From a virus: 44,012 nt of DNA. The notes beneath the pieces are model-generated. The model was not told the origin of the DNA, made no database searches, and saw nothing but the letters and a program-made list of their open reading frames with translations. Of this stretch, positions 17,338 to 44,012 are shown one piece after another (positions within the stretch are counted from its first letter, which is position 1; each line of letters opens with the position of its first letter). The stretch lies in the IMG/VR virus record IMGVR_UViG_3300049217_000078, positions 1 to 44,012 of that record; one strand, given 5' to 3'. The translations under genes were made by a program, and so were the position numbers.

Positions 17338-17356
17338 GGTTTATCCTCCTGTTTAA

Positions 17357-17385: not shown

Positions 17386-17390
17386 CACAT

Positions 17391-17708: not shown

Positions 17709-17743
17709 AAATGTTTGATTAATAAAATATGAGAGGAATCAAA

Positions 17744-18759: not shown

Positions 18760-18766
18760 GGATATT

Positions 18767-19358: not shown

Positions 19359-19359
19359 A

Positions 19360-19530: not shown

Positions 19531-19563
19531 TACTATAGATCGTATTCTATAGATTGTCAACTA
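19531..19563 (-). promoter_or_regulatory. 33-bp repeat copy A: TAG stop + TTGACA-N17-TATAGT promoter with two ATCTATAG(A) boxes, pointing leftward
   Basis: The reverse complement equals 34714-34746 exactly: tagTTGACAatctatagaatacgatcTATAGTa. Confidence 0.7.
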
Positions 19564-21891: not shown

Positions 21892-21915
21892 AGAAAGATA
21901 CTTCCTTTGATTAAA

Positions 21916-22221
21916 TTATTTAGATAAGTACGTCAAAACCCGCTCCTTTAGTTCAGGGGTTAACCGTCTAGTTAGTGGGTCTTTTCGAACCAAGCCTTGT
22001 GCAATTATTTCCAGTATTTCGGTTCTGATAGCCTCTTTAAGCACCAAGCGTCTGAGGTTATCCATCGATTGAAAATAACGTGTCACTAAACCATATGATA
22101 CTTTAGCTTTTTTTGCAATCCCATCTCGCGTTATGTGGCTGTAACCTAGTTCTTTGGACAGTTCAACAGCTTCTGATAATAGTTCTTTTTTTCTTTCTTT
22201 TGGTAATTTCCGTTCTCTCAT
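21916..22221 (-). CDS. TetR-family-like HTH protein, HTH domain only (102 aa from MRERK)
   Basis: ELLSEAVELSKELGYSHITRDGIAKKAKVSYGLVTRYFQSMDNL matches the TetR_N pattern. The start was chosen right after the stop of the upstream Cys-rich ORF. Confidence 0.65.
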   Translation of the reverse strand: MRERKLPKERKKELLSEAVELSKELGYSHITRDGIAKKAKVSYGLVTRYFQSMDNLRRLVLKEAIRTEILEIIAQGLVRKDPLTRRLTPELKERVLTYLSK

Positions 22222-22222
22222 T

Positions 22223-22426
22223 TTATATCTCTCGTTGTTCGCCGCAGTCTTTACATATACTGTAGGCAGTCCCGTCTGATAAGTTCTTGTAGACTTTGCA
22301 ACGGTTGTGCCTACACCCATTTTTTTTTGCATGACACTGTTTGCATAATATTTGTTTTTCATGAATCATTATTTTTAATCCATCGACTCTACCGCAATCT
22401 TTGCACATCATTTCATTCGTCTCCAT
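22223..22426 (-). CDS. Cys-rich zinc-ribbon protein (67 aa)
   Basis: Contains CKDCG...CKQCH...CKDCG. It competes with the N-terminal extension of ORF 21916..22362. The gene-packing logic favours this reading. Confidence 0.5.
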   Translation of the reverse strand: METNEMMCKDCGRVDGLKIMIHEKQILCKQCHAKKNGCRHNRCKVYKNLSDGTAYSICKDCGEQREI

Positions 22427-22682
22427 TTAATAAGGTTGGTATCTCACACCAGTGCGTTATATCTTCCAAATCATATTCGTACAAATCTTCCGTGTTTTCA
22501 AAATAAGGCTCAGGCCGATTTTCATACTTTTCCAGAGAAGCAACTGTATGTAATACATGATTTCTTTTCCAATGGGTTTTTTTAAGACGTAGTAAAACAT
22601 CTTTTCCAATTTCGGGTAATCCAATTTTAATATCTACCCATTTAATTTCTTCATTTGGTCTTTTAATTTTAGTTATCTCCAT
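22413..22682 (-). CDS. Hypothetical protein (DUF551-like candidate)
   Basis: 89 aa. Contains WVDIKIGLPEIGKDVLL. Confidence 0.5.
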   Translation of the reverse strand: MEITKIKRPNEEIKWVDIKIGLPEIGKDVLLRLKKTHWKRNHVLHTVASLEKYENRPEPYFENTEDLYEYDLEDITHWCEIPTLLNGDE

Positions 22683-22758
22683 TTAATAATCTCTCCAATA
22701 CATCTTCTAAACAATCTTCGCCTTCTTCGTACAAATCTTCCCAATCATTTTTTTCCAT
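22669..22758 (-). CDS. Tiny ORF (29 aa) resembling the C-terminus of the downstream 89-aa protein
   Basis: MEKNDWEDLYEEGEDCLEDVLERLLNGDN compared with ...EDLYEYDLEDITHWCEIPTLLNGDE. The two share the 16-nt string ttcgtacaaatcttcc. Confidence 0.35.
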   Translation of the reverse strand: MEKNDWEDLYEEGEDCLEDVLERLLNGDN

Positions 22759-22911
22759 AACCCACCCAGTTAACTCCTAATAAAATTTTCATAAAAAATC
22801 TATGTATAAAAAAAGGCTTATGACACATAGGTAAATTAACGTATTGGCAATTACCTACCTGTAATCTATAAGCTCCTATTTCTTTAGGGGGCTGTATAAA
22901 CCGGGCATTAG

Positions 22912-23094
22912 TCATTCAGTAGTTCTCCTAATTAAATTCTCAACAATAATGTCTATACAATCTCCGCATATTTCTTTATCACCGTGAACACCATTAATGA
23001 CCGCGGCTTCTGTATCTTTAAAATGGAAACCTGGTTCTAATTCTGCCCCACACCAAGACTTATTTTCTTCTGTAGTACATTTAATGTGATTCAT
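22912..23094 (-). CDS. Small Cys-containing protein (60 aa from MNHIKC)
   Basis: ATGA overlap with the VRR-NUC stop. Confidence 0.5.
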   Translation of the reverse strand: MNHIKCTTEENKSWCGAELEPGFHFKDTEAAVINGVHGDKEICGDCIDIIVENLIRRTTE

Positions 23095-23567
23095 AAAGTA
23101 CCTTCCCTTGTTGCAAAACAAGCATCGCCACCTAGACTAGTTATCAGCTCAAGCCATTTTAATTGAGCTTTTTCAGCATCTGTGCCAGTGTATGTCCAAT
23201 CACTTTTTTTTATTTCTCTGCTAACAAATTGACCTATTGTTAATCCTACCATGGTTTCTCTTATTTTTACTGGACGAATGCCTATTAAATCTGAAGATTT
23301 AATAAAATCGTTCATCTTACCTGATTCATTAGCCAGGCCATAGTGTACCCATTGGCCGTACTCATTTTTAAATGCGCCTCTATTATTTCTCCATAAGCGA
23401 CAATTTTTCTTACTAGCTTCTAGCCGTACAATACTAGTAACCGCAGCTTCTGATTTCCCTTGTTCGCAATGTATTACTTCTAATATGCCGGCCCCTAAAG
23501 ATTTTTTAAGATCTTCAATTGCCGCATTTGGTATTCCCCACTTACTTGCCCATGTTGTCAGTTTCAT
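23091..23567 (-). CDS. VRR-NUC / PD-(D/E)XK nuclease
   Basis: 158 aa. SSDLIGI...GQFVSREIKK fits the D...E-x-K core. Confidence 0.6.
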   Translation of the reverse strand: MKLTTWASKWGIPNAAIEDLKKSLGAGILEVIHCEQGKSEAAVTSIVRLEASKKNCRLWRNNRGAFKNEYGQWVHYGLANESGKMNDFIKSSDLIGIRPVKIRETMVGLTIGQFVSREIKKSDWTYTGTDAEKAQLKWLELITSLGGDACFATREGTL

Positions 23568-23597
23568 GTTTAGTCCTTCCCTGATGTTTTAAATACA

Positions 23598-25214
23598 TTA
23601 CCCTCTATTAACTACCTCGTCAATAGTATTTTTTAATTTTTCTGCATCCGCTGTATTTAAAGTTTGCGCAGTTAATATATCTGTACCAAAAGTGTAAAAG
23701 AATAATCTATATATTTCAGAATCAGATAGTTTAGGATGGTGATAACCCGCCCATTGTGATATAGAACTTCTAAGTTCACCCTGTGCTTCTTGACGCATTT
23801 TATGACGTTTTTTGATGGCTAACTCCGCAGGAATAGAAAGACCACTGGGAATCCTAGCAACATCATCAATCCGTGCTATTTCTCCCCGAAGATGTGCCAA
23901 TACCGAGGGATCTAATTCGTATAAATCCCCTTCTACATGTTCTGGGGAAGAGCGCTCTTTTGGGGGTGTTACATATCCGCAATATGGGCATGACTTGCGG
24001 TAAGCTTCATAGACGCTAAAACAATTGACGTTGAGACAAGTTTTAACTTGGATTGCGTCTGATAATTTACTTCTAACTTTACGTTCGCGGCGGTCTAAAG
24101 TCCACTCCCGAGGGGCATCGGGCAACCCGTGTAATTTGACGTTATCAACGTGGTCTATGATGATAGCATGCGTTTTACCGGGAAGCGGCCTGAGTGCACG
24201 CCCAAATTGCTGGGAATATAATCCGTAAGACTGGGTGGGACGCGCCATGGACACGACCTCTAATGCGGGTACGTCCACCCCCTCGCCCAATAAATCAACA
24301 TTAACAATCTGAAGAATTTCTCGATTCCTAAATCGACGCATAATCGTTTGACGCAAAAGATCTGGAGTTTTAGCGCTGATTGATTCTGCGGGTATGCCTT
24401 GCTGCCTAAATGCCGCGGCTATTTCTGTCGCTGACTGCACATCCACTGCGAAAGTTATGCCCAATTTACCAGGAGCGATTTTTAAATAATGATCAACGAC
24501 GTCTCCAGTAATGTGGGATTTATGTACTGCGTCTCTTAACTTTGGATTATTATAATCACCCCCCGCACTTATCGGGACTTGGGATAAATCTAAATCCGAT
24601 GGCGGGGCAAATATTCGATAATCTGTAAGATAGCCATCTTTGATCAATGTACGCATAGTTGGTCCAATTACCATACAATCTATTATACCATCAGCATGTC
24701 TACCTAAACCTCTACCGTCAGTACGACACGGTGTGGCAGTCGGGTAAAGGCCGAGCGCATTAGGAAACAGGCTAGCCGCGGTTCCCCACTTATTATTTTT
24801 AAGTACATGGTGTCCTTCGTCTTGTATGACAAGTGTTATTTCTTTCAACCACGCGGTACCGGGGTCTAATCTGATAAGCGTGTCCACCCCAGCTACATAG
24901 CACTTAGAACTCGGGTCGTAATACCTTTTCCCAAATTCTTGTATCTGTAGTGACACTATTTCTCGTATGGCGGCCCTTTGCGCGATTATATTATGTCTGA
25001 TTCCATATCGACTTAAAGTCAAAGATATTTGACTAACTAGTTCCATACGATGCGCAATTGCAATACAGGGCCCTGTATGCTTAGCGATAATATCAGAAAA
25101 TACCACAGTTTTACCGCCGCCTGTAGGTATCACTAATCCAACATTTATTGAACCTTGACGCCACGCTTCATATGTGCTGTTTATAGCATCGTATTGATAT
25201 TGCCTTAATTCCAT
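23598..25214 (-). CDS. SF2 DEAD/DEAH-box helicase with a C-terminal zinc ribbon
   Basis: Contains LRQYQ, PTGGGKT (motif I), QDEGHH (motif II) and QQFGRALRP (motif VI), plus CLNVNC...CPYCG. The ORF-track start at 25229 is a GTG, so the ATG at 25212-25214 is preferred. Confidence 0.85.
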   Translation of the reverse strand: MELRQYQYDAINSTYEAWRQGSINVGLVIPTGGGKTVVFSDIIAKHTGPCIAIAHRMELVSQISLTLSRYGIRHNIIAQRAAIREIVSLQIQEFGKRYYDPSSKCYVAGVDTLIRLDPGTAWLKEITLVIQDEGHHVLKNNKWGTAASLFPNALGLYPTATPCRTDGRGLGRHADGIIDCMVIGPTMRTLIKDGYLTDYRIFAPPSDLDLSQVPISAGGDYNNPKLRDAVHKSHITGDVVDHYLKIAPGKLGITFAVDVQSATEIAAAFRQQGIPAESISAKTPDLLRQTIMRRFRNREILQIVNVDLLGEGVDVPALEVVSMARPTQSYGLYSQQFGRALRPLPGKTHAIIIDHVDNVKLHGLPDAPREWTLDRRERKVRSKLSDAIQVKTCLNVNCFSVYEAYRKSCPYCGYVTPPKERSSPEHVEGDLYELDPSVLAHLRGEIARIDDVARIPSGLSIPAELAIKKRHKMRQEAQGELRSSISQWAGYHHPKLSDSEIYRLFFYTFGTDILTAQTLNTADAEKLKNTIDEVVNRG

Positions 25215-25232
25215 TTTATTTCCATCCACCTA

Positions 25233-25260
25233 TTGACTAACCCGTCAATAATACTATATC
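25233..25260 (+). promoter_or_regulatory. Rightward early promoter TTGACT-N16-TATATC overlapping a TGAC-N6-GTCA inverted repeat
   Basis: The block ctaTTGACTaacccgtcaataa (25230-25251) recurs at 29922-29943 with 2 mismatches. Confidence 0.55.
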
Positions 25261-25275
25261 ATTTGATCTTGTCAA
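25248..25275 (-). promoter_or_regulatory. Leftward early promoter TTGACA-N16-TATTAT, interleaved with the rightward promoter
   Basis: Minus strand: TTGACAagatcaaatgatatagTATTAT. The -10 hexamers of the two promoters occupy 25248-25253 and 25255-25260. Confidence 0.5.
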
Positions 25276-25290
25276 CTAGGAGATTAAACA

Positions 25291-25488
25291 ATGAGTGTTA
25301 AAGACATATTGAAAAACATTTTAGATTGGTTTAAAGAAGCAGAAAAACCAGTTGCCGTTGAAGGAATTATACAAGGTACAGCAAAGGCTTTACATAGATC
25401 AGTAATCCAATGTCAAAAGTTACAACCTGAGTTACAGGAAACGGAAATATTATCACGCATTATGAAGGCTTACGACAATGGAAATTGA
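25291..25488 (+). CDS. Early hypothetical protein (65 aa)
   Basis: AGGAG Shine-Dalgarno. First ORF after the early promoter. Confidence 0.55.
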   Translation: MSVKDILKNILDWFKEAEKPVAVEGIIQGTAKALHRSVIQCQKLQPELQETEILSRIMKAYDNGN

Positions 25489-25771
25489 CAGAATCGTTAA
25501 AATCAACAATATAGCAGATGAAATTTTAAGAGAGTTGTATGTAAAAGCTTTAGAAAGATACAGAGATAGGCTTAGTGAAGAACTTGGGGAATATGATTCA
25601 CAAGAATATGCATCAGGTTTAATGGCTTTGGCAGTAAATTTATCAGGAAATCTTTTAAGCGGAATTAAAAAAATGCATGAATCAGTTGAGATAGGAAGTT
25701 TATACCTTTGTTTTACAGAGATGTTAGTTAGCGGGTTACAGAAAGTAGATAGCATGAAGTCGTTACATTAA
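25478..25771 (+). CDS. Early hypothetical protein (97 aa)
   Basis: ORF with an 11-nt overlap to the previous ORF. Confidence 0.5.
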   Translation: MEIDRIVKINNIADEILRELYVKALERYRDRLSEELGEYDSQEYASGLMALAVNLSGNLLSGIKKMHESVEIGSLYLCFTEMLVSGLQKVDSMKSLH

Positions 25772-25891
25772 GTTTCACCGTCAAGTCGTGAGTGACGTAA
25801 AACCGCGACAGCCCTTGGAGTGATAACGTCTCCACGTAAAGTTTCTATGACTCGCGAAGGGCAACTAATTTAACTTAATGGAGAATCCAAA

Positions 25892-26545
25892 ATGCTAAGT
25901 TTTCACAATGATCCAACGATAAAAGAAAAATACTTAAATAGAGTAAAATTACACAGAGAACTCGATAATATTATACAAGGAATCGGATGGGAAAATGGAA
26001 AGGGTTGTGCAGTAGGTTGCACTTTGGAAAATTATGATCATTCAGAATATCCAATTGAACTAGGTTTACCAGAATGGTTAGCAAGACTAGAAGACGCGAT
26101 TTTTGAAAATATACTTAATGAAGAAGCAATGTTATGGCCAGAAAAATTTCTAGATGCAATTCCAGTCGGTGTATGCGTTGAAAATGTTAAACACCGATTA
26201 TCAATTATTAGAATGAACAATCTATTAGAAATACAAAATAAATTATTAGAATCATATAAAAATAGTGAACTAGAAAAAATATTTATAGATGTAATGTCAT
26301 CTATTGAATTAGTAAAGAAATGTCATGAAGCAGAATTAAATAAAAATTATTGTGATTGGTCAGCAGCAGAGTCAGCAGCATGGTCAGCAGAAAGTTCAGC
26401 ATCGTCAGCAGCATCGTCAGCAGCAGAGTCAGCAGCAAGGTCAGCAGCATGGTCAGCAGCATGGTCAGCAGAAAGTTTAGCATGGTCAGAAGCATGGAAA
26501 GAAGAATCAGAAAATTTAATTGAACTTTTAAAAAATTGTAAATAG
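25892..26545 (+). CDS. Repeat protein: globular N-terminal domain plus a C-terminal [SW]-S-A-[AE] tetrapeptide array
   Basis: 217 aa with a GGAG Shine-Dalgarno. The C-terminus reads SAAESAAWSAESSASSAASSAAESAARSAAWSAAWSAESLAWSEAW. Confidence 0.6.
   Translation: MLSFHNDPTIKEKYLNRVKLHRELDNIIQGIGWENGKGCAVGCTLENYDHSEYPIELGLPEWLARLEDAIFENILNEEAMLWPEKFLDAIPVGVCVENVKHRLSIIRMNNLLEIQNKLLESYKNSELEKIFIDVMSSIELVKKCHEAELNKNYCDWSAAESAAWSAESSASSAASSAAESAARSAAWSAAWSAESLAWSEAWKEESENLIELLKNCK
26357..26497 (+). repeat. About 11-12 tandem imperfect 12-nt units (tggtcagcagca-like) inside the 217-aa CDS
   Basis: Read directly: tggtcagcagca gagtcagcagca tggtcagcagaa ... The repeat is in frame. Confidence 0.85.
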
Positions 26546-26555
26546 GAGAATAATT

Positions 26556-26723
26556 ATGAAAAAAGTAATATTTGAAAAAGATTATTACGGTGAAAATATA
26601 AATGATGTTTTTGAAGAAATTAACCACTCAATAAATGCACAAGATTTACCGACAGATGAACACGGATTTTTCAAAGGAACTATATCAATACAAGTAACAT
26701 ATTCTAATTATGAAGGAGAATAG
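26556..26723 (+). CDS. Small hypothetical protein (55 aa)
   Basis: Not in the ORF track. AGGAGA Shine-Dalgarno. Translation begins MKKVIFEKDYYGENINDVFEEINHS. Confidence 0.45.
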   Translation: MKKVIFEKDYYGENINDVFEEINHSINAQDLPTDEHGFFKGTISIQVTYSNYEGE

Positions 26724-26726
26724 GAA

Positions 26727-27353
26727 ATGACAATACGAATCGAAATTATTGATCCAACGATTAAAGATGAAAAGATGCTAGTGGCAACCGCTAGATTCTT
26801 AATGGAACTTGCGGGGCATCAAATGGTTCCTGCACCTGTTGAAGTTAAGGAACAAAAATTAAATGAAGGGGAAATACCAGTTACTTTGGAAGACTTAAAA
26901 GTAGATGGTTCAATCGGTTACTATGAAGGAAACCCTCCGGCTCATGAAAAGCTTGTTGAAGAACATGAAAAACTAGTTGCGGAGTTAGATAATTTAACAA
27001 TCGAGAAAAAACAAAGACGTAAAAAAATGAAAACAACTAAACTAGAAAAACATTTAACTGATAAAGAAATTGATTCATTTTTAGGGGAAAAATTACTAGA
27101 ATCTGAACATGTTTTAGTAGAAGAATTTAATAACACACCTCCATTTTTTCAGGTTACTCCACCCCCTAAGATCGATTTCAACTCTTTAATAGGAAAGATA
27201 ACTAAATTAACCGCAGAAAAGAAACTAGTCGCAGAAGATGTATTGAAAATAGTTAGGTCGTATGGTTTAAGCCATACGTATGAACTATCGACTAATCCGC
27301 AGTTAATAGAGAAAGTTAATGCAAGTATTGATAAATTTGGGGGTGATAAGTAA
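26727..27353 (+). CDS. Early hypothetical protein (208 aa)
   Basis: GGAGAA Shine-Dalgarno. Contains an internal HEKLVEEHEKLV repeat and a charged central region. Confidence 0.55.
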   Translation: MTIRIEIIDPTIKDEKMLVATARFLMELAGHQMVPAPVEVKEQKLNEGEIPVTLEDLKVDGSIGYYEGNPPAHEKLVEEHEKLVAELDNLTIEKKQRRKKMKTTKLEKHLTDKEIDSFLGEKLLESEHVLVEEFNNTPPFFQVTPPPKIDFNSLIGKITKLTAEKKLVAEDVLKIVRSYGLSHTYELSTNPQLIEKVNASIDKFGGDK

Positions 27354-27772
27354 TGGAACTTGAACAACAAGTAACATCTTTAGAACTATCAAAACGTCTA
27401 TGTGAATTGGGAGTTAAACAAGAAAGCTTGTTTTATCATCATTGGTATAAAAAAAATAGAGATTATGAACGAATAGAACATACAATAGAAAAAGAATACT
27501 CTGAATCTTTCGATGATAATAAGTGGAAATTTGAATGCTATGCAGCATTCACCGCCTCAGAACTTTTAGAGTTATTGCCTAACGAGATTTCAAATAATGA
27601 TATTTATTATACTTATTTAATGATTTTTAAGAAAAATAATGAATATGAAATAAGATATGACAGCATGAATATAGACCGTATAAGCCATATTAAATTCGGG
27701 CGTACATTACCAAATGCACTAGCAAAAATGTTGATTTATTTTATAGAAAATAAATTACTGGAGATTAAGTAA
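27353..27772 (+). CDS. Early hypothetical protein (139 aa)
   Basis: TAATG junction with the upstream ORF. Confidence 0.55.
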   Translation: MELEQQVTSLELSKRLCELGVKQESLFYHHWYKKNRDYERIEHTIEKEYSESFDDNKWKFECYAAFTASELLELLPNEISNNDIYYTYLMIFKKNNEYEIRYDSMNIDRISHIKFGRTLPNALAKMLIYFIENKLLEIK

Positions 27773-28099
27773 ATGGGTATGAATACATTAAGTTCATGTT
27801 CCAGCAGCCCCTACGCTACTAAGGATTCTAACCCAAACCCTAAGGTTTATAAAATAACAAGGGTATTCAATTTTGGTAAAAATTTGGCAATATTAGTAAC
27901 TTATCCAAATTGTACTAATTTTGAAGGTAATAAAATATTAGTTTATAAAAATATACATAATTTAGAAAATTTATTGAAATTAACTAAAGGGGAGTTAGAC
28001 CCGCATTTTTCAAAAGGTACCTCGCCATTCGCTAGATTTATACCCACTGAAGAAGGTTGGAATAACGCCATCAAACTGTGTGAATCAATTAGAGGGTAA
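27773..28099 (+). CDS. Early hypothetical protein (108 aa)
   Basis: Starts immediately after the upstream stop. Confidence 0.5.
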   Translation: MGMNTLSSCSSSPYATKDSNPNPKVYKITRVFNFGKNLAILVTYPNCTNFEGNKILVYKNIHNLENLLKLTKGELDPHFSKGTSPFARFIPTEEGWNNAIKLCESIRG

Positions 28100-28103
28100 G
28101 TAA

Positions 28104-28289
28104 ATGAAAGTAGATGAATTTTTAGAAAGCGTATTGAAAGAAAAAGACGAATCAAAAAGAGACGAATTGGTTGAAAATAAATTTAATGAGATAGAAAAGG
28201 AAATAGAGAAGTGCGAAAGGAAATTGAATAGCTTAAATGATTTCAGAGAAGCATTAGCGCAATTTCACGTGATGTTAAGGAGGATGTAA
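28104..28289 (+). CDS. Small coiled-coil protein (61 aa)
   Basis: Highly charged, with a helical-looking sequence. Confidence 0.45.
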   Translation: MKVDEFLESVLKEKDESKRDELVENKFNEIEKEIEKCERKLNSLNDFREALAQFHVMLRRM

Positions 28290-28453
28290 TGCCTAAGACT
28301 TTAACTTGCAAAATATTCGGATGCAAACCGGTTAGATACAGGCACGTACCTTTTTCATTAAGAAAGCGGATTGGAAGATTTGACCAGATAAAATGCCCAA
28401 GTTGTCTTTGGATATTTAAAGAGTATTACATATGCCGCAGGGGGTGTTGCTGA
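28289..28453 (+). CDS. Small Cys-rich protein (54 aa)
   Basis: Not in the ORF track. TAATG junction. Translation: MPKTLTCKIFGCKPVRYRH...KCPSCLWIFKEYYICRRGCC. Confidence 0.45.
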   Translation: MPKTLTCKIFGCKPVRYRHVPFSLRKRIGRFDQIKCPSCLWIFKEYYICRRGCC

Positions 28454-28517
28454 GTCGGTGGTGAAAGGGGGTACCTTTGCCTTGCGAACTGTTAATTAAA
28501 TTAGGGAGGGTAAGTAG

Positions 28518-28691
28518 ATGATCGGATTAATAGAAAAACTTTTTAACAAAAAATGCGACCACGGTGGAATGAATTTAAAAAGTATAAAAATGTATAAATG
28601 CCACATCCACTGTTCTAACTGCAATGAGATGTTAACAACCCCCATTTCAGAAAAAGAAATGGAAGAAAGATTTGAGAATGACACTTTTTAA
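28518..28691 (+). CDS. Small zinc-ribbon-like protein (57 aa)
   Basis: Not in the ORF track (the antisense ORF 28496..28684 is listed instead). GGGAGGG Shine-Dalgarno. Contains CDH...CHIHCSNC. Confidence 0.5.
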   Translation: MIGLIEKLFNKKCDHGGMNLKSIKMYKCHIHCSNCNEMLTTPISEKEMEERFENDTF

Positions 28692-28701
28692 GGAGACTGT
28701 A

Positions 28702-28848
28702 ATGAATATTTATATAGTATTTGAAGACTCAGGAACATGTCTGCCCTCTGGCATAGATAAAATATTTTTATCCGGAGAAAAAGCAGATGAGTATCTGTCT
28801 ACTAAAGAATATGGTTTTTACTTAGAAGAGCATGAGGTAAACGTATGA
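28702..28848 (+). CDS. Small hypothetical protein (48 aa)
   Basis: Not in the ORF track. AGGAGA Shine-Dalgarno. ATGA overlap with the nuclease gene. Confidence 0.45.
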   Translation: MNIYIVFEDSGTCLPSGIDKIFLSGEKADEYLSTKEYGFYLEEHEVNV

Positions 28849-29921
28849 CTACTCACTCTAAATTAGCTCCTTCCTCAGCGGAGCGTCGCATGGCGTGCCC
28901 TGGGTCTAGGAGGATGGAAGAGATTTACCCCAACAGGAAATCCGAAGCTTCTAGAGAAGGAACAATGGCGCATAAGGTTTGCGAAATGCTAGTAACGGGT
29001 GAAATACAAGGATTCGATTGTTCGAGAGAAATGTTTTTACACTGTGAAATGTATGTTAATTATATACGTAAGGTAATGCACAGCCCCAATCCAGCTATGT
29101 TTTATCAATTACAACTTGAAGAAACTATTAACATGGAATCGATACACCCAGATATGTACGGAACTCCCGACGCATGGTTTTTTACAGAGAACCATTTACA
29201 CATATTTGACTTTAAATATGGTTTCAAAGCCATTGAGGTGTTCGAAAACTGGCAGTTAATAGCTTATTCAGCGGGAATAATGGAAGGCGAACCAACGGTA
29301 GACAAAGTCACTTTTCACATTATTCAACCTCGCGCAGTACATAAAGATGGACCTATAAGAACTTGGAGTATTTCTTCTGACGAGTTAATTATTTATTGGG
29401 ATCGTTTACGAGCTTCTGAAGCAATAGCCGCTACTGAAGATGCCCCCCTAACCCCAGGCTCAGGATGTGAATATTGTCGCGCACGTCATGCATGCCCTGC
29501 ATTAAGAAAAACCGTATTGGAGAGAATTAACATGAAAGATTTACCAAAAGAATTAACTGACGATGAATTAGGAAAAGAACTTAAACAACTTCACGATTCA
29601 CAAGAGCTATTGAAAGCACGTATCACGGCATTAGAATCAGAAGCCTTGGCTAAATTAAAAATTGGAAAGAGAATACCGTTTTACCAATTAGGCCGGCATC
29701 AGCCTAGAGAAAAATGGGTTAAACCAATAGCTGAAATATTGACGCTAGGTGAAATGTTCGACGTGGATTTAAAAAAAGAACCTGAAGCAATTACACCTAA
29801 ACAAGCTATCAAAGCAGGGATTCCAGCAGATTTAGTGCGTCAGTATTCAGATACTCCAATAGGTGAACTAAAGTTAGAACAAGTGAAAGAATCTGAAACT
29901 AGAAAAATATTTGCAAAATAA
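28845..29921 (+). CDS. PD-(D/E)XK (Cas4/RecB-like, DUF2800-like) exonuclease with a Cys cluster
   Basis: 358 aa. Contains CPGS near the N-terminus, GTPDAWFF...IFDFKYG (D...D-x-K) and CEYCRARHAC. Confidence 0.7.
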   Translation: MTTHSKLAPSSAERRMACPGSRRMEEIYPNRKSEASREGTMAHKVCEMLVTGEIQGFDCSREMFLHCEMYVNYIRKVMHSPNPAMFYQLQLEETINMESIHPDMYGTPDAWFFTENHLHIFDFKYGFKAIEVFENWQLIAYSAGIMEGEPTVDKVTFHIIQPRAVHKDGPIRTWSISSDELIIYWDRLRASEAIAATEDAPLTPGSGCEYCRARHACPALRKTVLERINMKDLPKELTDDELGKELKQLHDSQELLKARITALESEALAKLKIGKRIPFYQLGRHQPREKWVKPIAEILTLGEMFDVDLKKEPEAITPKQAIKAGIPADLVRQYSDTPIGELKLEQVKESETRKIFAK

Positions 29922-29924
29922 CTA

Positions 29925-29953
29925 TTGACGAACCCGTCATTAACAGTTAGTAT
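29925..29953 (+). promoter_or_regulatory. Promoter TTGACG-N17-TAGTAT overlapping a TGACG-N4-CGTCA inverted repeat
   Basis: ctaTTGACGaacccgtcattaacagtTAGTAT. It is homologous to the 25230-25251 block. Confidence 0.55.
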
Positions 29954-29983
29954 GTCTTTGTCATTAATTAAGGAGAAACAAAA

Positions 29984-30826
29984 ATGGAAACTATTTTATT
30001 CCCAATCGGTCGGTTAGTAATGGGTTCTTTATATAAAGCTCAGGATAAAGATAGGGTCACAGGTAAGCCGTTTATAGACGATAGCGGAAAGCCATACGTT
30101 AAACACTACATTGCTTTAGCTATTCCTAAAGGCTCAGAACAGCATTGGAATCAAACAGAATGGGGTAAAAAAATATATGATGTAGCGGTTAAGGGTTTTC
30201 CAAACGGTCAAGCAAATTCACCATTATTCTCTTGGAAAATTGTGGATGGAGATAGTAATGTTCCGAATGGTAATGGTAGAAAGCCATGCGATTCAGAAGG
30301 CCACAAAGGGCATTGGATTGTGAATTTCAGTAATAGATTTGCATCCCCTATTCTTTGCGATGAAAAGGGCGCTCTATTATTAAAACCAGAAGAATTTATA
30401 AAACCAGGTGATTATATTCAAGTTTTTGGAAACATGAAGGATAATGGCAATCAACAAAAACCAGGCGTGTATTTAAATCACACACATGTGGCGTTTATTG
30501 GATTTGGGGAAAGAATAACAGTTTCTTCCATTGATCCAACAACTATTGGATTCGGCGGTGCGTTGCCTGCTGGAGCTAGCAAAACTCCAATCAGCTCTGG
30601 GTTTAATTCAGTCACTCAGGTATTATCTGCACCATACCAGCCCCCTGTTGTACAGACGCTTTCACATGCCCCCGTGCCTGTTCCAGCCGCAGCACCCCCA
30701 GCATATCCAAACATCCTTAAGCCTAAAATTATGACAGATTTAGCTAATGGGGCAACTTACGAAGCTTTCATTCAGCAGGGATGGACGGATGAAGCATTAA
30801 TTCAGCATGGATATTTGCAAGCTTAA
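29984..30826 (+). CDS. ssDNA-binding-like protein (DUF2815-like)
   Basis: 280 aa, in the typical position between the DUF2800-like nuclease and the family A polymerase. It has a Pro/Ala-rich linker and an acidic/aromatic tail. Confidence 0.55.
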   Translation: METILFPIGRLVMGSLYKAQDKDRVTGKPFIDDSGKPYVKHYIALAIPKGSEQHWNQTEWGKKIYDVAVKGFPNGQANSPLFSWKIVDGDSNVPNGNGRKPCDSEGHKGHWIVNFSNRFASPILCDEKGALLLKPEEFIKPGDYIQVFGNMKDNGNQQKPGVYLNHTHVAFIGFGERITVSSIDPTTIGFGGALPAGASKTPISSGFNSVTQVLSAPYQPPVVQTLSHAPVPVPAAAPPAYPNILKPKIMTDLANGATYEAFIQQGWTDEALIQHGYLQA

Positions 30827-30871
30827 TCAACTAACACGCCCCTTGAAATAGGGGCTTTAGGAGACGTTAAA

Positions 30872-31198
30872 ATGTTATTAAAAGAAAGGGTTAAAATATT
30901 AAAGAAAGAAGTAATTGAATTAAATGAACAAATACCAATGCTTCATAATTCTGTAGATTTGGCTCATGAGAAAATAAGATTTCTAGAAGATAAAGTTAAA
31001 CCAGATATCCTGCAAGACTTTAAAAAACGTCTATATCAATTAGAAGAATTAATGTCATCAGTTAATAGTCACTTTAAGGATGAAAGAGAAAAAAGGTTTA
31101 CCCTAGAAGAAAAATACAGAATATTAATAGCATTTTTAAAACAAAATTTGCATAGCGCGACTGTAGAAAATATTTTAATGGAAATAGGAGAACTGTAA
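30872..31198 (+). CDS. Coiled-coil protein, paralog A (108 aa)
   Basis: The C-terminus KYRILIAFLKQNL...ENILMEIGEL parallels that of ORF 31346..31717. Confidence 0.5.
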   Translation: MLLKERVKILKKEVIELNEQIPMLHNSVDLAHEKIRFLEDKVKPDILQDFKKRLYQLEELMSSVNSHFKDEREKRFTLEEKYRILIAFLKQNLHSATVENILMEIGEL

Positions 31199-31341
31199 TG
31201 AAAAAACTACTATGCATCGTGTTAATCTTATGCTCGCAACAAGCCTTTCCTAAAGTGAGAGCCGTTGATATTGAAATAGCCCTTTGCGATCAATTGCCAA
31301 AGAATAAGATCTTTGGATGTTTAATGCAGATAAGGAAATAG
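31198..31341 (+). CDS. Small signal-peptide protein (47 aa)
   Basis: Not in the ORF track. TAATG junction. Translation begins MKKLLCIVLILCSQQAFPKV. Confidence 0.4.
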   Translation: MKKLLCIVLILCSQQAFPKVRAVDIEIALCDQLPKNKIFGCLMQIRK

Positions 31342-31345
31342 GAAA

Positions 31346-31717
31346 ATGAAATATTCACCAGATGAATATTGTGAAATTACAGAATTGTGGGACAAGATAA
31401 AAGAATTAGAAAAAAGTGAATTATATAATTTAGCAAAATTTCAGCAACTAGATCAGGTCACAACTAAGTTGAGGGAAGATTTAGAAAAATTTAATCTATC
31501 TGTTTCTGCGGATGTATGGGATTTAAAACAAAAAAGAAATAGGACAAAAGAAAAAACAGATAAAAAAAATGCGATTTTAATACTTAAAGAAAAATCAAAA
31601 AAATTATCATCAAAACAAAAATATAAAATAGCTTTAGATTTTATAAAAGCGCTTAGATACGAAGATTATGTTTTTGGAGTAGAAGAAGTTTTAGCTGAAT
31701 TAGGAGAACTAAAATGA
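31346..31717 (+). CDS. Coiled-coil protein, paralog B (123 aa)
   Basis: C-terminus KYKIALDFIKAL...EEVLAELGELK. Confidence 0.5.
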   Translation: MKYSPDEYCEITELWDKIKELEKSELYNLAKFQQLDQVTTKLREDLEKFNLSVSADVWDLKQKRNRTKEKTDKKNAILILKEKSKKLSSKQKYKIALDFIKALRYEDYVFGVEEVLAELGELK

Positions 31718-31899
31718 ACACTGCAGACAGACAGAAATTCAAAGAACATTTAGCAAAACAAAAATCAGAGCTAGTAAATAAAATACATGAGGAAACTAAC
31801 CGGGTAATAACGGGTAGGGATAAGAGCCGAGTGCCAGAATTAATAAAAATATTGGAAGGAATTCAAAGACAATTAGTCAAGTTGGAGATAGTGAAATGA
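31714..31899 (+). CDS. Small hypothetical protein (61 aa)
   Basis: ATGA overlaps on both sides. Confidence 0.45.
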   Translation: MNTADRQKFKEHLAKQKSELVNKIHEETNRVITGRDKSRVPELIKILEGIQRQLVKLEIVK

Positions 31900-32132
31900 A
31901 ATTATTACCATGCCCATTTTGCGAAAATGAAGTGTTTTACAGTGCAAAAGAAAAATTTATTTCCCCGTGTGCGGTCGTCATTGTATGTAACAATTGTAAG
32001 TTAACCATGGATGATATAAATCAATGGAATAAGCGTTCTAATTCTGGAGAATTTTTAAGAGGATTTTTAGAAGCAAAAAGGCAAATGTTGGAAATCCTTA
32101 ATAAGCTAACTAGCACTAAGGGTAAATTATGA
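31896..32132 (+). CDS. Lar-family-like zinc-ribbon protein (restriction alleviation candidate)
   Basis: MKLLPCPFCENE...VCNNCKL...INQWNKR matches the Lar pattern (CPFCG ... CxxC ... WNxR). From recollection. Confidence 0.5.
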   Translation: MKLLPCPFCENEVFYSAKEKFISPCAVVIVCNNCKLTMDDINQWNKRSNSGEFLRGFLEAKRQMLEILNKLTSTKGKL

Positions 32133-34420
32133 TCCCCTCACCTCCTCCAAAATTAGAAGACTTACCGTCGGGACATAAACTAAACGCAGGTTTAGGAGTT
32201 TCCACAATCCTACCTGAGATGGACTTTGAAACCTACTCACCCGCCGGGTTTGAGTGGGACCTTACTCAAGGTAAATTCAAACCGCCACATGGCGCAAGTA
32301 TCAAAGGACTTCCGGTAACTGGTGCCGCGAGATATACAGAGCATCCAGAAGCTGAAGTATTGTGCCTAGCGTACAACCTAAAAGACGGAAACGGGGCGAA
32401 ATTGTGGAAACCGGGAGATTTTCCGCCACAAGATTTATTGGATCATATTTCATCAGGGCACTTAATTGAGGCTTGGAATGTTGCATTTGAGTACTGGGTG
32501 TGGAATAATATTTGCGTACATAAGTACAATTTCCCTCCACTATCCCCTCTCCAAATACGGTGTGCGGCTGCCAAGAGTCGCGCACACGCTCTTCCAGGTT
32601 CTCTTGACCCAGCGGGTGAAGTAGTTAATATCAAGAACAAAAAGAATAAAGATGGTAAAAGACTAATAACCAAATTTAGTATTCCTAGAAACCCAACTAA
32701 GAAAAACACTTCTTTAAGAACTTTACCCACAGACGACCCACAAGATGCCAACAACTTATACAACTACTGTTTGCGGGACATCGAAGCAGAAGCTGAGTTG
32801 TCATCTAAAACACCGGATCTTTCAGAAAGCGAATTGAAATTTTGGCAATGTGACCACGCCATTAACGTTCGCGGTATTCAGATTGACTTACCGCTTATAA
32901 ATAATTGCATTAGCATACTCGAGCAGGCGTATAAGAAATATGATGAAGAGTTACGTAAAATTACATTAGGAAAGGTTAATTCTGCAAGCGCATTACCTAG
33001 CCTTAAAAAATGGATGATTGAGCAAGGGATTACCGTAAATAAACTAACTGCTGACGATATAGAAGATTTGAAAAAAGTAATTCCTTGGAATAGACCCGAA
33101 ATCCATAGAGCCTTAAATATCAGAGAGATGAATGGTGCAGCCTCAGTTAAGAAGCTCTACGCAATGGCAAACCAAGTAACACGTGACAATCGTTTGCATG
33201 ACTTATTCATATACCATTCAGCACGCACGGGGCGCGCGGCAGGCACTGGGCCACAACCTCAAAACTTGCCAAATAGCGGACCTACGGTAAAAGAATGCGT
33301 ATGCGGTAAATATTTTAAATTATACACAGGATCTTGCTTGTGGTGCGGAATAGAACCAGAAACCACTATTAATAGTATGGAATGCGATAAATGCGAAGGT
33401 TTGGCTGAAGAATTTGAAATAAACCATAAGCACTCTGAATGGAACCCTCAAGCCGTAGAAGACGCCATTGAGATACTGAACACTGGTAGTCTAGAATGCG
33501 TCGAATACTACTTTGGGGATGCTGTTGAAATCATATCTTCATGCCTTCGCGGGATGTTTATTTCAGCGCCTGGAAAAGATTTAATATGTTCAGATTACAG
33601 TGCAATTGAAGCCGTGGTATTAGCCGCTTTAGCCGGTGAACAGTGGAGATTAGATGTATTCAATACCCACGGTAAAATATATGAAACATCCGCATCTAAG
33701 ATAACCGGGACTTCCCTAGAAGAATATGAATTATATAAATCTACTTCAGGTTCCCACCATCCGGATCGTAAGATAGGAAAAGTGGCAGAATTGGCGTCGG
33801 GATATCAAGGTGCCGTAGGGGCATGGAAAGCTTTCGGGGCCGATGAATTCTTTACCGACGAAGTAATACTTGAGAAAGTAAAAGCATGGCGTGCGGCTTC
33901 TCCCAATATTGTAAAACTGTGGTACGGGTTGGAAAATGCCGCTATTGCAGCCGTATCAAACCCAGGTACCGAATGTAATTACCGAGGTTTGACATACATA
34001 TGTAAACAAAATGTACTGTATTGTAAATTATTATCTGGTCGTTTAATCACGTACCACAGACCGATATTGTCTCCTCATGAAAAATTCGAAGGTAAGTTAT
34101 CTTTAAGTTTTGAAGGTTGGAACACTAATCCAAAATATGGAAAAACCGGCTGGGTAAGAATGAACACTTATGGAGGCAAATTAACGGAGAATGTCGTGCA
34201 AGCAACAGCCAGGGACATTTTAGCGCATGCGGTCATTAATTTGGAAGACAAGGGTTACCCCGTGGTTTTGCATGTGCACGATGAAATTGTGGTTGAAGTA
34301 GAAGAAGGCAAAGGAACCGTTGAAGAGGTTGAAACAATAATGAGCACGATGCCTGATTGGGCAAAAGGGTGGCCTGTAAAGGCTAAAGGTGGATGGAGAG
34401 CTAAGAAGTACAACAAATGA
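32129..34420 (+). CDS. Family A DNA polymerase with 3-5 exonuclease domain and a Cys-rich insertion
   Basis: Contains MDFETYS (Exo I), PQNLPNSG (the NLQNIP equivalent), DYSAIEAVVLA (motif A), RKIGKVAELASGYQG (motif B) and VLHVHDEIVVEV (motif C). Confidence 0.9.
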   Translation: MIPSPPPKLEDLPSGHKLNAGLGVSTILPEMDFETYSPAGFEWDLTQGKFKPPHGASIKGLPVTGAARYTEHPEAEVLCLAYNLKDGNGAKLWKPGDFPPQDLLDHISSGHLIEAWNVAFEYWVWNNICVHKYNFPPLSPLQIRCAAAKSRAHALPGSLDPAGEVVNIKNKKNKDGKRLITKFSIPRNPTKKNTSLRTLPTDDPQDANNLYNYCLRDIEAEAELSSKTPDLSESELKFWQCDHAINVRGIQIDLPLINNCISILEQAYKKYDEELRKITLGKVNSASALPSLKKWMIEQGITVNKLTADDIEDLKKVIPWNRPEIHRALNIREMNGAASVKKLYAMANQVTRDNRLHDLFIYHSARTGRAAGTGPQPQNLPNSGPTVKECVCGKYFKLYTGSCLWCGIEPETTINSMECDKCEGLAEEFEINHKHSEWNPQAVEDAIEILNTGSLECVEYYFGDAVEIISSCLRGMFISAPGKDLICSDYSAIEAVVLAALAGEQWRLDVFNTHGKIYETSASKITGTSLEEYELYKSTSGSHHPDRKIGKVAELASGYQGAVGAWKAFGADEFFTDEVILEKVKAWRAASPNIVKLWYGLENAAIAAVSNPGTECNYRGLTYICKQNVLYCKLLSGRLITYHRPILSPHEKFEGKLSLSFEGWNTNPKYGKTGWVRMNTYGGKLTENVVQATARDILAHAVINLEDKGYPVVLHVHDEIVVEVEEGKGTVEEVETIMSTMPDWAKGWPVKAKGGWRAKKYNK

Positions 34421-34716
34421 AATTAAATAGAAAACGTAAATTAAAATTAGAAATAGGACAAATTTGGGAAGCCATAGACTTAGATGATTCTGGAAATGAA
34501 GGCTATTATTGGAGAGTAAAAATAATACATAAAACAATTGTAAATAACGAAAATAGATGGATATCTTTAAAAATATATAACAATTTTGAAGAATTAAATT
34601 GGGGATCTTTTATAGTATTTAATGATTATGGTCATTGTATTTCCATAATGGAGGATTTAAATATGGATTTTTATTTAAATAAAAAATCATATATTACTAA
34701 AAAAGATAGAATATAG
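34417..34716 (+). CDS. Hypothetical protein (99 aa)
   Basis: ATGA overlap with the polymerase stop. Its TAG stop is the first 3 nt of the 33-bp repeat. Confidence 0.5.
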   Translation: MKLNRKRKLKLEIGQIWEAIDLDDSGNEGYYWRVKIIHKTIVNNENRWISLKIYNNFEELNWGSFIVFNDYGHCISIMEDLNMDFYLNKKSYITKKDRI

Positions 34717-34746
34717 TTGACAATCTATAGAATACGATCTATAGTA
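34714..34746 (+). promoter_or_regulatory. 33-bp repeat copy B: TAG stop + TTGACA-N17-TATAGT promoter with two ATCTATAG(A) boxes, pointing rightward
   Basis: tagTTGACAatctatagaatacgatcTATAGTa. -35 at 34717-34722 and -10 at 34740-34745. Exact inverted copy of 19531-19563. Confidence 0.7.
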
Positions 34747-34783
34747 ATCATGTAACTTAACACTAACCATGGAGACGGAACTC

Positions 34784-34921
34784 ATGAACGGGATATTTGA
34801 AGTGTTTTTAGTAACAGCGTTGCTGGCAGTATGTGTATATTCAATGTGGCTATCACATGAAAGCACAATTGCTATGCAGCAAATGATGCAACAAATTCAA
34901 ATGATGTTTGTTAAAAGTTAA
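34784..34921 (+). CDS. Small membrane protein (45 aa)
   Basis: Not in the ORF track. GGAGACGG Shine-Dalgarno. Translation: MNGIFEVFLVTALLAVCVYSMWLSHESTIAMQQMMQQIQMMFVKS. Confidence 0.5.
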   Translation: MNGIFEVFLVTALLAVCVYSMWLSHESTIAMQQMMQQIQMMFVKS

Positions 34922-35098
34922 TAAACAGTTTATGGGGTGCGCTTTTAGGTAACAAAAAGCAGACTTTTATCAACCGACCTGACTAATCTATCGCTAGTAG
35001 GGTTGATGGGCGGCGATGCACCCCACCAATTTAATAAGGTATGTTAGAAATACTAGGCAACATCTATGAAAATCCTGAATCACTGGAGAACAACTAAA

Positions 35099-35410
35099 AT
35101 GTTAATACGTGAAATTACATACGGTTTAACCGCGGCAACCGCAATCTGCTTTATAGCTTGGGATTTTTGTATAAATCACAATTCTCCGTCTTTAAAACAG
35201 GCGGAGGTAAATAAACAAATAGCGATTATAAAAGCTGAAGAAATAGAAGCTATTAGCAGAATAGTTTCTTATGATTTGTATCTTAAATCTATATGGATAG
35301 AAGCCATAAAAGATTCAGAAAAACAAATAATTTACGTGCCTACGGAGGACAGTACCCCAAATATGTCTACTAAAGGTATATGGGATCTAATTAAAGGGGT
35401 TATAAAATAA
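35099..35410 (+). CDS. Membrane protein (103 aa from MLIREITYG)
   Basis: A GGAGAA Shine-Dalgarno precedes the ATG at 35099. Has an N-terminal transmembrane segment, LTAATAICFIAWDFCI. Confidence 0.55.
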   Translation: MLIREITYGLTAATAICFIAWDFCINHNSPSLKQAEVNKQIAIIKAEEIEAISRIVSYDLYLKSIWIEAIKDSEKQIIYVPTEDSTPNMSTKGIWDLIKGVIK

Positions 35411-35411
35411 T

Positions 35412-35441
35412 AAAAAAGACCGTCTTGGCTGCAAGACGGTT
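35412..35441. terminator. Bidirectional rho-independent terminator between convergent genes
   Basis: AAAAAA-g-ACCGTCTTG-GCTG-CAAGACGGT. This is a 9-bp perfect stem. The U-tract is on the minus-strand transcript, and the hairpin lies directly after the plus-strand stop. Confidence 0.8.
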
Positions 35442-35474: not shown

Positions 35475-35687
35475 TTAATCTGACCTATAAACACTCTTTA
35501 TTTTCATTCTTTTTTTATATTTTATACTTTCCAGGTCTAAATCGCTAAGACGGGATATCTCCATGTGAGCTCCATTTAAAAAAGAAATAGGCTCGTTAGG
35601 TAATAACTTCCACCGGGACCACCAAGAGAGTTTGTATTGAATGCCATAACCTCCGCCAACAAACTCAACTATCCTGTATTTTTTCAT
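35475..35687 (-). CDS. Hypothetical protein (70 aa), last gene of the leftward unit
   Basis: ORF followed by the terminator. Overlaps the RHH-like ORF by 23 nt. Confidence 0.5.
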   Translation of the reverse strand: MKKYRIVEFVGGGYGIQYKLSWWSRWKLLPNEPISFLNGAHMEISRLSDLDLESIKYKKRMKIKSVYRSD

Positions 35688-35811
35688 TATTTTTAATATA
35701 CTCTGCTATTAAGTCATTGAGAACTTCTGTCATTGTTTTTTGTTTTTCTACGCAAATTGTTTTAAATTTAATAAACGTATTTTTATCTATTATAAAGTTT
35801 ATTTTTTGCAT
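35665..35811 (-). CDS. Ribbon-helix-helix (CopG/Arc-like) candidate (48 aa)
   Basis: Not in the ORF track. MQKINFIIDKNTFIKFKTICVEKQKTMTEVLNDLIAEYIKNNEKIQDS has a beta-strand then two-helix pattern. It has no obvious Shine-Dalgarno, and a long hairpin sits 5 nt upstream. Confidence 0.4.
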   Translation of the reverse strand: MQKINFIIDKNTFIKFKTICVEKQKTMTEVLNDLIAEYIKNNEKIQDS

Positions 35812-43672: not shown

Positions 43673-43924
43673 TTATTTCCTCTCAGCTTCTTTTTTAGCG
43701 GCTTTTGCCGCTAACCATGCGTTAAATTTTGGTACCGCTATAACTTCCCAAAGTATAAAAGCATCTTCAAGTGTGTATGTGTTCCTTAACTGCTCGAGGG
43801 TGGCTTGTTTTTCAGAGAGAATTGCCCCAAAGAGTCCGTCAATGTTTTGGTAATCCACGCTGGAACCTTCTGGGCTAAACCGCTTAAGAAAGTCGAGGCT
43901 AGCCCGTTTTGAAAAAAACTGCAA
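43673..43924 (-). CDS. T-frame (-1) extension of the tail assembly chaperone, expressed as a G-T fusion of about 177 aa
   Basis: No ATG (only a TTG pseudo-start). It overlaps the G frame and ends 1 nt before the tape measure ATG. A slippery heptamer lies within the overlap. Confidence 0.6.
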   Translation of the reverse strand: MQFFSKRASLDFLKRFSPEGSSVDYQNIDGLFGAILSEKQATLEQLRNTYTLEDAFILWEVIAVPKFNAWLAAKAAKKEAERK

Positions 43925-44012
43925 TTGTACTCTATGACGGCAGCTTCTAATTTCATCAAAGTTTCCCAGTCTCCGGCATGTTGATTGACCAATTCTGAAT
44001 TACTCAAAGCCA
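43786..44012 (-). CDS. Tail assembly chaperone (G-like), 3-prime part (same gene as 1..320)
   Basis: ORF 43786..44007 reads SNSELVNQHAGDWETLMKLEAAVIEYNCSFFQNGLASTFLSGLAQKV. This is identical through the overlap to the ORF that runs off the window start. Confidence 0.75.
   Translation of the reverse strand, partial: ALSNSELVNQHAGDWETLMKLEAAVIEYNCSFFQNGLASTFLSGLAQKVPAWITKTLTDSLGQFSLKNKPPSSS
43886..44012. repeat. Terminal overlap copy 2 (identical to 1-127)
   Basis: Direct comparison of the two ends. Confidence 0.95.

Follow-up and report, generated by a model that had tools for sequence, protein, structure and literature searches.

Predicted sigma-70-type promoters with a candidate operator box at the ends of a phage replication module

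Results and discussion

We analysed a viral DNA of 44,012 nucleotides (IMG/VR record IMGVR_UViG_3300049217_000078; the whole record is called the window below), in which a 33-bp sequence, TAGTTGACAATCTATAGAATACGATCTATAGTA, brackets the replication and recombination module (19561-34716) as an exact inverted repeat. Our analysis makes it probable that the two copies, here named PA and PB, and a third, related site, P3, are near-consensus sigma-70-type promoters sharing a lineage-specific, operator-like box with the sequence CTATAG, and that PA and PB owe their identity to a recent conversion. The three promoters would form a family inherited by the whole phage clade, in which each member begins at the end of the preceding operon, over its stop codon, reads outward, and drives short accessory genes for small membrane proteins, secreted proteins and an HTH_17 protein. 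The PA unit is expected to run head-on into P3, and the PB unit into the late operon at its lysis end. The boxes are putative binding sites of a phage-encoded DNA-binding protein, which would co-regulate PA, PB, P3 and the head/terL operon, and the HTH_17 protein encoded behind P3 would fit best as this regulator.

The inverted repeat and its promoters

A search of the window with the 33-bp sequence located exact copies at 34714-34746 (+; PB) and 19531-19563 (-; PA), as an earlier note on this DNA had reported, and no other site when up to three mismatches were allowed, with none expected from shuffled sequences (n = 100). In a repeat search, this pair was the longest inverted repeat of the window (47 nt at 89%, with the arms 15,150 nt apart). 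The description of the copies in the earlier note, as consensus promoters that begin with a stop codon and point outward from the module, was also borne out. Both contain TTGACA-17-TATAGT, which agrees with the consensus at 11 of 12 positions, both are directed away from the module, and their first three bases are the TAG stop of the open reading frame (ORF) at 34417-34716 (+) and of the ORF at 19561-21891 (-), respectively. When the region from 17 to 36.5 kb was scanned for promoters, four sites reached 11/12, all of them intergenic.

In PB, the -35 hexamer TTGACA lies at 34717-34722 and the -10 hexamer TATAGT at 34740-34745, with a predicted transcription start at about 34752. Box 1 (CTATAG) occupies 34725-34730, box 2 (CTATAG) occupies 34739-34744 and overlaps the -10 hexamer, and an upstream TATAG at 34712-34716 includes the TAG stop of the preceding 99-aa ORF. 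PA, on the minus strand, has its -35 hexamer at 19560-19555, box 1 at 19552-19547, its -10 hexamer at 19537-19532 and a predicted start at about 19525, and the primase-helicase gene terminates in the TAG of PA (19563-19561). P3 (18236-18267, +), in which a related promoter had correctly been noticed at 18239-18267, reads TAG-TTGACT-17-TATAGT and is convergent with PA at a distance of 1.3 kb; its box 1 is degenerate (ATGTAG), and its box 2, CTATAG, lies at 18261-18266. The earlier placement of two TCTATAGA boxes in the spacer was inaccurate. PB has one full TCTATAGA (34724-34731), and the second unit is TCTATAGT at 34738-34745, mostly the -10 hexamer itself; the unit that recurs after 14 bp is the 6-bp palindrome CTATAG.

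At the sequence level, these sites have the features of sigma-70-type promoters: the hexamers are near consensus at a distance of 17 bp, the positions are intergenic, and a gene with a ribosome-binding site follows on the same strand. The hexamers are also kept at orthologous sites, TTGAC and TAnnnT being present in all family members from eight genomes.

Conservation of the promoter family in related phages

For comparison, we used fetched loci of related phages (155 in all, numbered L001 and so on). The window and four close uncultured relatives were searched with a pattern fixing only TTGAC and TA[TC]AGT. This pattern, which does not constrain the spacer, detected 11 promoters at syntenic sites, and 9 of the 11 had CTATAG (at least five of the six bases) at the same position in the spacer. 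With further scans and the fetched loci, the family was found at syntenic sites in at least eight genomes. Three sites recur, namely PA directly after the primase gene (orthologues in L001, L047, L051, L055, L007, L058, L156 and L161), P3 at a distance of about 1.3-1.8 kb and convergent (L001 at 13896 (-), L047 at 11995 (-), L051 at 9510 and L055 at 8911), and PB after the polymerase arm (L003, L004, L005, L046, L157 and L160). The family consensus is (A)AGTAG-TTGAC(A/T)-nn-CTATAG-N8-(C)TATAGT, with the spacer free to vary outside the box; a tally of 19 sequences, which were selected on the box and are not independent, is illustrative only.

Box 1 follows two bases after the -35 hexamer, at about -27 to -22, and AGTAG usually stands just before that hexamer. 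In the subclade of the window, a second CTATAG overlaps the -10 hexamer, and AGTAG, CTATAG and CTATAG are all in a 14-bp register. The upstream TAG belongs to the motif and does not reflect a constraint on coding, because the stop of the upstream gene differs by genome, being provided by this TAG, by a TGA inside TTGACA, by a TAA after TTGAC or by the TAG of box 1.

More distant relatives, with a G+C content of 53-55% and tail proteins about 40% identical, have a dual box, TTGAC-N3-CTATAG-N8-CTATAGT, at the junction equivalent to that of PB, on one side of which the recombination genes end, while small membrane genes converging on the lysis genes lie on the other. In these relatives (L034 at 367-394, L044 at 7548-7575, L040 at 9879-9906, L043 at 6472-6499 and L048 at 4330-4357) the boxes are extended into perfect inverted arms of 10-11 nt, as in ACTCACTATAG-N8-CTATAGTGAGT. 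Note that the dual promoter of L034 and L044 contains GACTCACTATAG, which is identical to the T7 promoter core; the match is striking and probably a coincidence. Other members of the supergroup have repeated promoters of their own: TTGACAC-GAACGGCAACA...TATAAT occurs three times in L028 (12260, 13011 and 14214, +; 11-12 of 12 to consensus), and TTGACAAnnnTGTCATTAA recurs in L050, which is phage Scuro (13242, 22984, 10414 and about 33400). Since the fixed spacer words of these two differ, clade-specific spacer boxes seem to be a general habit of the phage supergroup.

The full pattern occurred 20 times in 596 Gb of bacterial genomes, against about 17 expected by our own estimate. This frequency is at chance level and gives no clue to the host, and it indicates a motif of the phage lineage rather than of a host. 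A search of the metagenome collection did not turn up the exact promoter, and a literature search for CTATAG operators returned only noise from T7 primers. With its 14-bp register and the AGTAG before the -35 hexamer, the CTATAG box is not known to match any described operator.

Origin of the identity of PA and PB

PA and PB of the window are identical at all 33 positions, whereas in the three relatives that have both promoters and the same gene order they differ at 6, 10 and 12 of the 33, and these differences concentrate in the spacer outside the boxes. The PB of the window has 2 mismatches to its orthologue in the closest relative, and the PA has 6 to its own orthologue. L156 and L001 have a common PA type, AGCTATAGATGATGTTC. 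When the PA of the window was aligned with theirs, only 2 of 48 positions differed in the downstream flank, while 5 of 17 differed in the spacer, where the window is equal to PB; that is, a PB-type spacer is set between primase-side flanks. This arrangement and the divergence in the relatives indicate that the perfect identity is due to a recent conversion patch. A short gene conversion would have copied the core of PB over PA, plausibly by way of the exonuclease and the Gp2.5-like annealing protein of the phage itself, and the identity would be a derived feature of this genome.

Exact identity is thus no evidence for a constraint on all 33 bases, and the argument of the earlier note, that conservation of the exact 33 bp implies a regulator, fails. 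The earlier note had also named a recent duplication as the explanation that relatives without the repeat, but with the same gene order, would favour. This is partly correct, in so far as one copy has recently replaced the other, although the promoters as such are of old date.

Evidence for a shared factor and its candidate regulators

As a palindrome, CTATAG is found within the spacer and again over the -10 hexamer, and box 1 is conserved beyond the needs of the polymerase, as shown by the 9 of 11 promoters found without spacer constraint, in which its neighbours drift. A box pair that stands alone, TGTAG-N8-CTATAG, is located at 12142-12160 (-), with ATCTATAGAT at 12142-12151 ahead of a 51-aa ORF and terL, as first described; it sits between a TATAAT and the Shine-Dalgarno sequence of the 51-aa ORF that precedes terL. 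At the equivalent place before terL, L052 and L051 have AGTAG-N8-CTATAG-N6-TATAAT. In these two, a TAGACT-17-TATAAT promoter holds the pair in its spacer, whereas in the window the pair lies downstream of TATAAT. The pair is thus kept independently of the hexamer frame, suggesting a protein site. The sequence TAG-N9-TATAG occurs 8 times against 1.6 expected, and all occurrences fall at four sites (PA, PB, P3 and upstream of terL), so that the same motif is present at four sites of the window, one of them off the -35/-10 frame. A search for ATCTATAGAT at up to two mismatches gave no further convincing sites.

The earlier note had suggested that the box be looked for in related genomes, and there CTATAG was kept while the remainder of the spacer diverged, which fits a shared sequence-specific factor. 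Its claim of a shared regulator therefore retains the promoter pair, the motif shared with the sites at 18239 and before terL, and the conserved box, although it loses the argument from exact identity. Because the boxes lie inside the spacer and the -10 hexamer or just downstream of TATAAT, repression by occlusion would be the likeliest mode of action at PA, PB and P3.

Three proteins had been put forward as DNA-binding candidates, and Pfam confirmed all three families (HTH_17, a ParG/Arc-like ribbon-helix-helix (RHH) protein, and TetR_N). The HTH_17 protein (excisionase/MerR-like; 18767-19021, +; PF12728, E = 5e-6) has homologues in 6 of 80 primase-anchored relatives. Five of these six carry AGTAGTTGAC..CTATAG promoters, and no HTH_17-negative locus that covers the region has such promoters. 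A PDB sequence search with this protein gave only a weak match to RacA. The RHH protein (48 aa; 35665-35811, -) is encoded within 1 kb of PB, and its gene is conserved next to PB, beside a 70-aa gene, in L003, L004, L005, L006 and L046, the last with a diverged form. The gene has its own promoter, TTGCCA-17-TATAAT at 35925-35897, which is without a CTATAG box, and the PDB search matched only ParG. The TetR-like protein (21916-22362, -; TetR_N) is present in about 60 of the 80 relatives, with or without CTATAG promoters. A different palindrome, TTGAC-N6-GTCAA, occurs in 47 of the 155 fetched loci, often at about 9.63 kb and immediately upstream of the TetR-like gene (near 9630 in, for example, L066, L069, L084, L099, L105 and L106); it was also seen just downstream of PB in L157, L159 and L160. 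This palindrome is probably the operator of the TetR-like protein itself. Since the distribution of that protein is independent of the box and is paired with TTGAC-N6-GTCAA, it is unlikely to bind CTATAG. We tentatively regard the HTH_17 protein as the best candidate, followed by the RHH protein and then the TetR-like protein.

A more specific proposal, to which we give a low probability, is that the phased boxes are the operator of a lineage regulator, likeliest the HTH_17 protein, which would regulate its own synthesis, shut the three promoters and control the head/terL operon. The sites would be kept alike by concerted evolution through the recombination system of the phage.

Several observations weigh against a dedicated regulator of the boxes and against the HTH_17 protein in this role. 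The loci positive for HTH_17 are the closest relatives, so the co-occurrence with the promoters is confounded by phylogeny, and L061 is positive for HTH_17 yet has no clear promoter of the family. Box 2 is not kept outside the subclade of the window, being replaced by TACAAT or TACTAT in L058 and L128, and may be nothing beyond the -10 hexamer. Box 1 is degenerate in L005 as well as in P3 of the window. A simple dimeric operator would not normally have its boxes 14 bp (about 1.3 helical turns) apart. Finally, the differing offset of the terL pair from TATAAT clouds its mode of action.

Alternative explanations

The box might instead be an element read by the polymerase, either because the spacer or the DNA shape tunes promoter strength or because a phage-modified host polymerase contacts it, with no dedicated repressor or activator involved. 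The fixed distance of the box from the -35 hexamer in every family member would be expected in this case, as would the existence of other fixed spacer words in other clades (CGGCAACA three times in L028, TGTCATTAA in phage Scuro), and TA-rich steps are flexible. We consider this explanation unlikely, because the terL pair is without TTGACA and lies at varying distances from TATAAT between genomes, and because the perfect inverted arms of the distant relatives are typical of protein-binding operators. A promoter for a single-subunit, T7-like RNA polymerase encoded by the phage would be another polymerase-based explanation. The sequence AATACGA..CTATAG of the window superficially resembles the T7 and SP6 promoter cores, and GACTCACTATAG is found in L034 and L044. 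However, AATACGA is not conserved in the relatives, which have instead kept a canonical -35 and -10 at 17 bp. In addition, comparison of ORFs with Pfam or PHROGs turned up no integrase, invertase, recombinase or RNA polymerase, although this coverage was incomplete, omitting many small early ORFs and most ORFs of the late region at 36.8-42.4 kb; a 965-aa ORF was without any family match. Lacking its defining feature, a polymerase gene among the scanned ORFs, and with AATACGA unconserved, the T7-like reading was rejected as extremely improbable.

The remaining explanations concern the repeat as a whole. If selection by one regulator that needs the same site at both ends of the module held all 33 bases identical, the exact identity in this genome would be explained, but the two promoters of relatives with this gene order differ at 6-12 positions, mostly in the spacer outside the boxes, and the PA of the window carries the signature of a conversion patch; such selection is therefore improbable. 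Alternatively, the inverted copies could serve as recombination sites, either for inversion of the 15-kb module or as crossover linkers when modules are swapped between co-infecting relatives. Because the stop codons fall within the 33-bp inverted homology, no gene would be disrupted by an inversion. The phage has genes for an exonuclease and an annealing protein, and around PB the promoter is conserved but the gene content to either side is highly variable (the 99-aa ORF has no homologue in any relative, and two genes in the window stand against about nine in L046). On the other hand, the module has the same orientation in all the relatives examined, including phage Scuro, and the two copies in the relatives are too different for efficient recombination. 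As for an invertible segment, the inverted repeats are present, the scanned ORFs gave no recombinase match and no relative is inverted. We regard this role as quite improbable. The preferred explanation thus remains a family of sigma-70-type promoters with an operator-like box.

Genes downstream of the promoters

In the window, PB is followed by a conserved leader, TGTAACTTAA, a GGAG and the gene for a small membrane protein (34769-34921, +), which probably begins with the ATG at 34784 after the GGAG and whose product ends in MMFVKS. The same order, with a membrane protein of 45-59 aa ending in MMFVKS, is seen in relatives, homologues of this gene being located directly after PB in L004, L005, L003 and L046. 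Past this first gene the PB operon is variable, with two genes in the window against about nine different genes in L046. The second gene of the window (35066-35410, +) codes for 114 aa with an N-terminal hydrophobic segment. The PB unit and the late/lysis genes that converge on it are separated by a G+C-rich hairpin (35419-35440), which looks like a terminator with its T-run on the minus strand. On the other side of PB, the 99-aa ORF (34417-34716) between the polymerase gene and the promoter has no homologue among the fetched relatives and no family match, and the stretch from the polymerase gene to PB is a hypervariable slot.

PA is followed by a gene for 49 aa with a C-terminal hydrophobic segment (19350-19499, -), which begins at the ATG at 19499 in the context AAGGGA-N8-ATG. 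Proteins of 46-56 aa with a C-terminal hydrophobic segment, either homologues or analogues, are encoded after PA in the window, L001, L047 and L033. The transcript expected from PA was also considered as a small RNA, as it folds slightly better than shuffled sequences (z = -2.1); this idea was dropped because the region holds the conserved 49-aa ORF. In L001 (12322-12534) and L047 (9943-10149), an ORF for a Cys-rich, zinc-ribbon-like protein of 68-70 aa is an insertion that separates PA from the primase gene; it is missing from the window, L033, L007 and L156, and there the primase stop directly abuts the promoter.

The P3 operon (18355-19358, +) consists of three genes, for a signal-peptide protein (18355-18759), the HTH_17 protein (18767-19021) and a second signal-peptide protein (18942-19358), all of which are present in L001 and L047. 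In L047, the 580-nt leader from P3 to the first protein gene contains a tRNA-Phe-like gene predicted by ARAGORN (11542-11617, -) with the unusual anticodon AAA. The PA gene at 19350-19499 (-) and the last P3 gene at 18942-19358 (+) converge with an overlap of 9 nt and no recognisable terminator between them. Transcriptional collision or antisense effects between the PA and P3 units are possible, as two strong and similar promoters lie 1.3 kb apart.

The replication module and the remainder of the genome

The module between the two copies of the repeat consists of two diverging arms, and family searches agreed with its first description as a set of replication genes. The leftward arm (25229-19561) codes for a DEAD helicase, an endonuclease, the TetR-like protein and the primase-helicase, in which an NrS-1-like primase-polymerase is joined to a DUF5906 helicase; the rightward arm (25291-34716) codes for an exonuclease, the Gp2.5-like annealing protein, a family A DNA polymerase and the 99-aa ORF. 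The central divergent promoters of the module lie within 25233-25275 (TTGACT-18-TATCAT rightward, TTGACA-16-TATTAT leftward), and the palindrome TTGAC-N6-GTCAA is present there as TTGACTAACCCGTCAA at 25233-25248 and again at 25262-25275, an operator type unlike CTATAG. Within the rightward arm, the ORF at 25892-26545, which has a weak PHROG match only, to a family of unknown function, contains a 12-nt tandem array (26346-26516; about 10 copies of GGTCAGCAGCAN) encoding a Gln-rich repeat.

The other genes on the minus strand are chiefly structural and lysis genes (sheath, capsid, protease, portal, terL, a tail-fibre cluster, tape measure and endolysin). Between the terS-like gene (16906-17337, -) and terL lie three adjacent paralogous small proteins (12454-13990), all of phrog_15750 (tail-related), and the 965-aa ORF (13813-16710) in the tail-fibre cluster, so that the terminase genes are about 5 kb apart. 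A 390-bp A+T-rich non-coding gap (17338-17728) separates the terS-like gene from a divergent ORF for a Cys-rich protein of 100 aa (17729-18031, +). This gap holds a hairpin (17583-17598) and several weak promoter-like sites and is a candidate packaging or replication site, or late control region.

The window contains a whole phage genome with a G+C content of 38%. Its first and last 127 nt (1-127 and 43886-44012) are identical, forming an exact direct repeat that is either a true terminal redundancy or an overlap left by circular assembly, and minus-strand late genes cross this junction. The genome had been called otherwise non-repetitive, which is true in general, this terminal repeat and the coding tandem array being the exceptions. 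By polymerase sequence, the nearest deposited phages are Acinetobacter phage Scuro, which has the same layout as the window, and Shewanella phage SppYZU01, both at about 52% identity. Judged solely from these polymerase relatives, the host would be a gammaproteobacterium. A megablast search of the module against GenBank phages gave no match, and scanning the window for Rfam families and tRNAs was likewise without result.

Relation to known systems and implications

The closest parallels are the repeated sigma-70 promoters of lytic phages and the PL and PR promoters of lambda with OL and OR. In these, as here, near-consensus hexamers at 17 bp occur in several copies at the starts of operons, and extra conserved bases over the polymerase site imply one regulator with a small regulon. 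The window differs from lambda in showing no sign of lysogeny, without an integrase among the scanned ORFs, and in its box, for which no match to a described operator is known. Arc and Mnt of P22 at Pant and the early/late p4 switch of phi29 also use short symmetric boxes in or beside a promoter, with the same boxes at early-type promoters and at a morphogenesis operon, and the window has an RHH gene within 1 kb of PB. However, their spacing and geometry are different, the promoter of the RHH gene is without the box, and the likeness noted for the boxes is one of layout. The boundary or linker sequences of lambdoid phages resemble the repeat as short conserved non-coding elements at which the gene content varies on both sides; the element of the window is primarily a promoter, though, and the sole recombination mapped to it is the conversion of PA within the genome. 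With the promoters of T7 and SP6, the family shares CTATAG and, in the distant relatives, GACTCACTATAG, but the conserved parts in the window are sigma-70 hexamers, and no polymerase of that kind is among the scanned ORFs.

The repeat thus reads as ordinary phage regulation, that is, repeated sigma-70-type promoters of a familiar class with a lineage-specific operator-like box, and this promoter pair does not open a new kind of mechanism. A more general point is that perfect identity of repeats within one genome can stem from a recent conversion rather than from functional constraint, and only the comparison of relatives separates the two. If the tentative reading of the HTH_17 protein as the regulator were true, it would amount to a compact early-to-late switch conserved across relatives from 38% to 55% G+C. 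For the uncultured myovirus-like phages of about 44 kb that are related to Scuro and SppYZU01, the analysis provides a predicted transcription map. It places three putatively co-regulated accessory promoters and a second type of operator, at the central replication promoters, and names a few candidate regulators.

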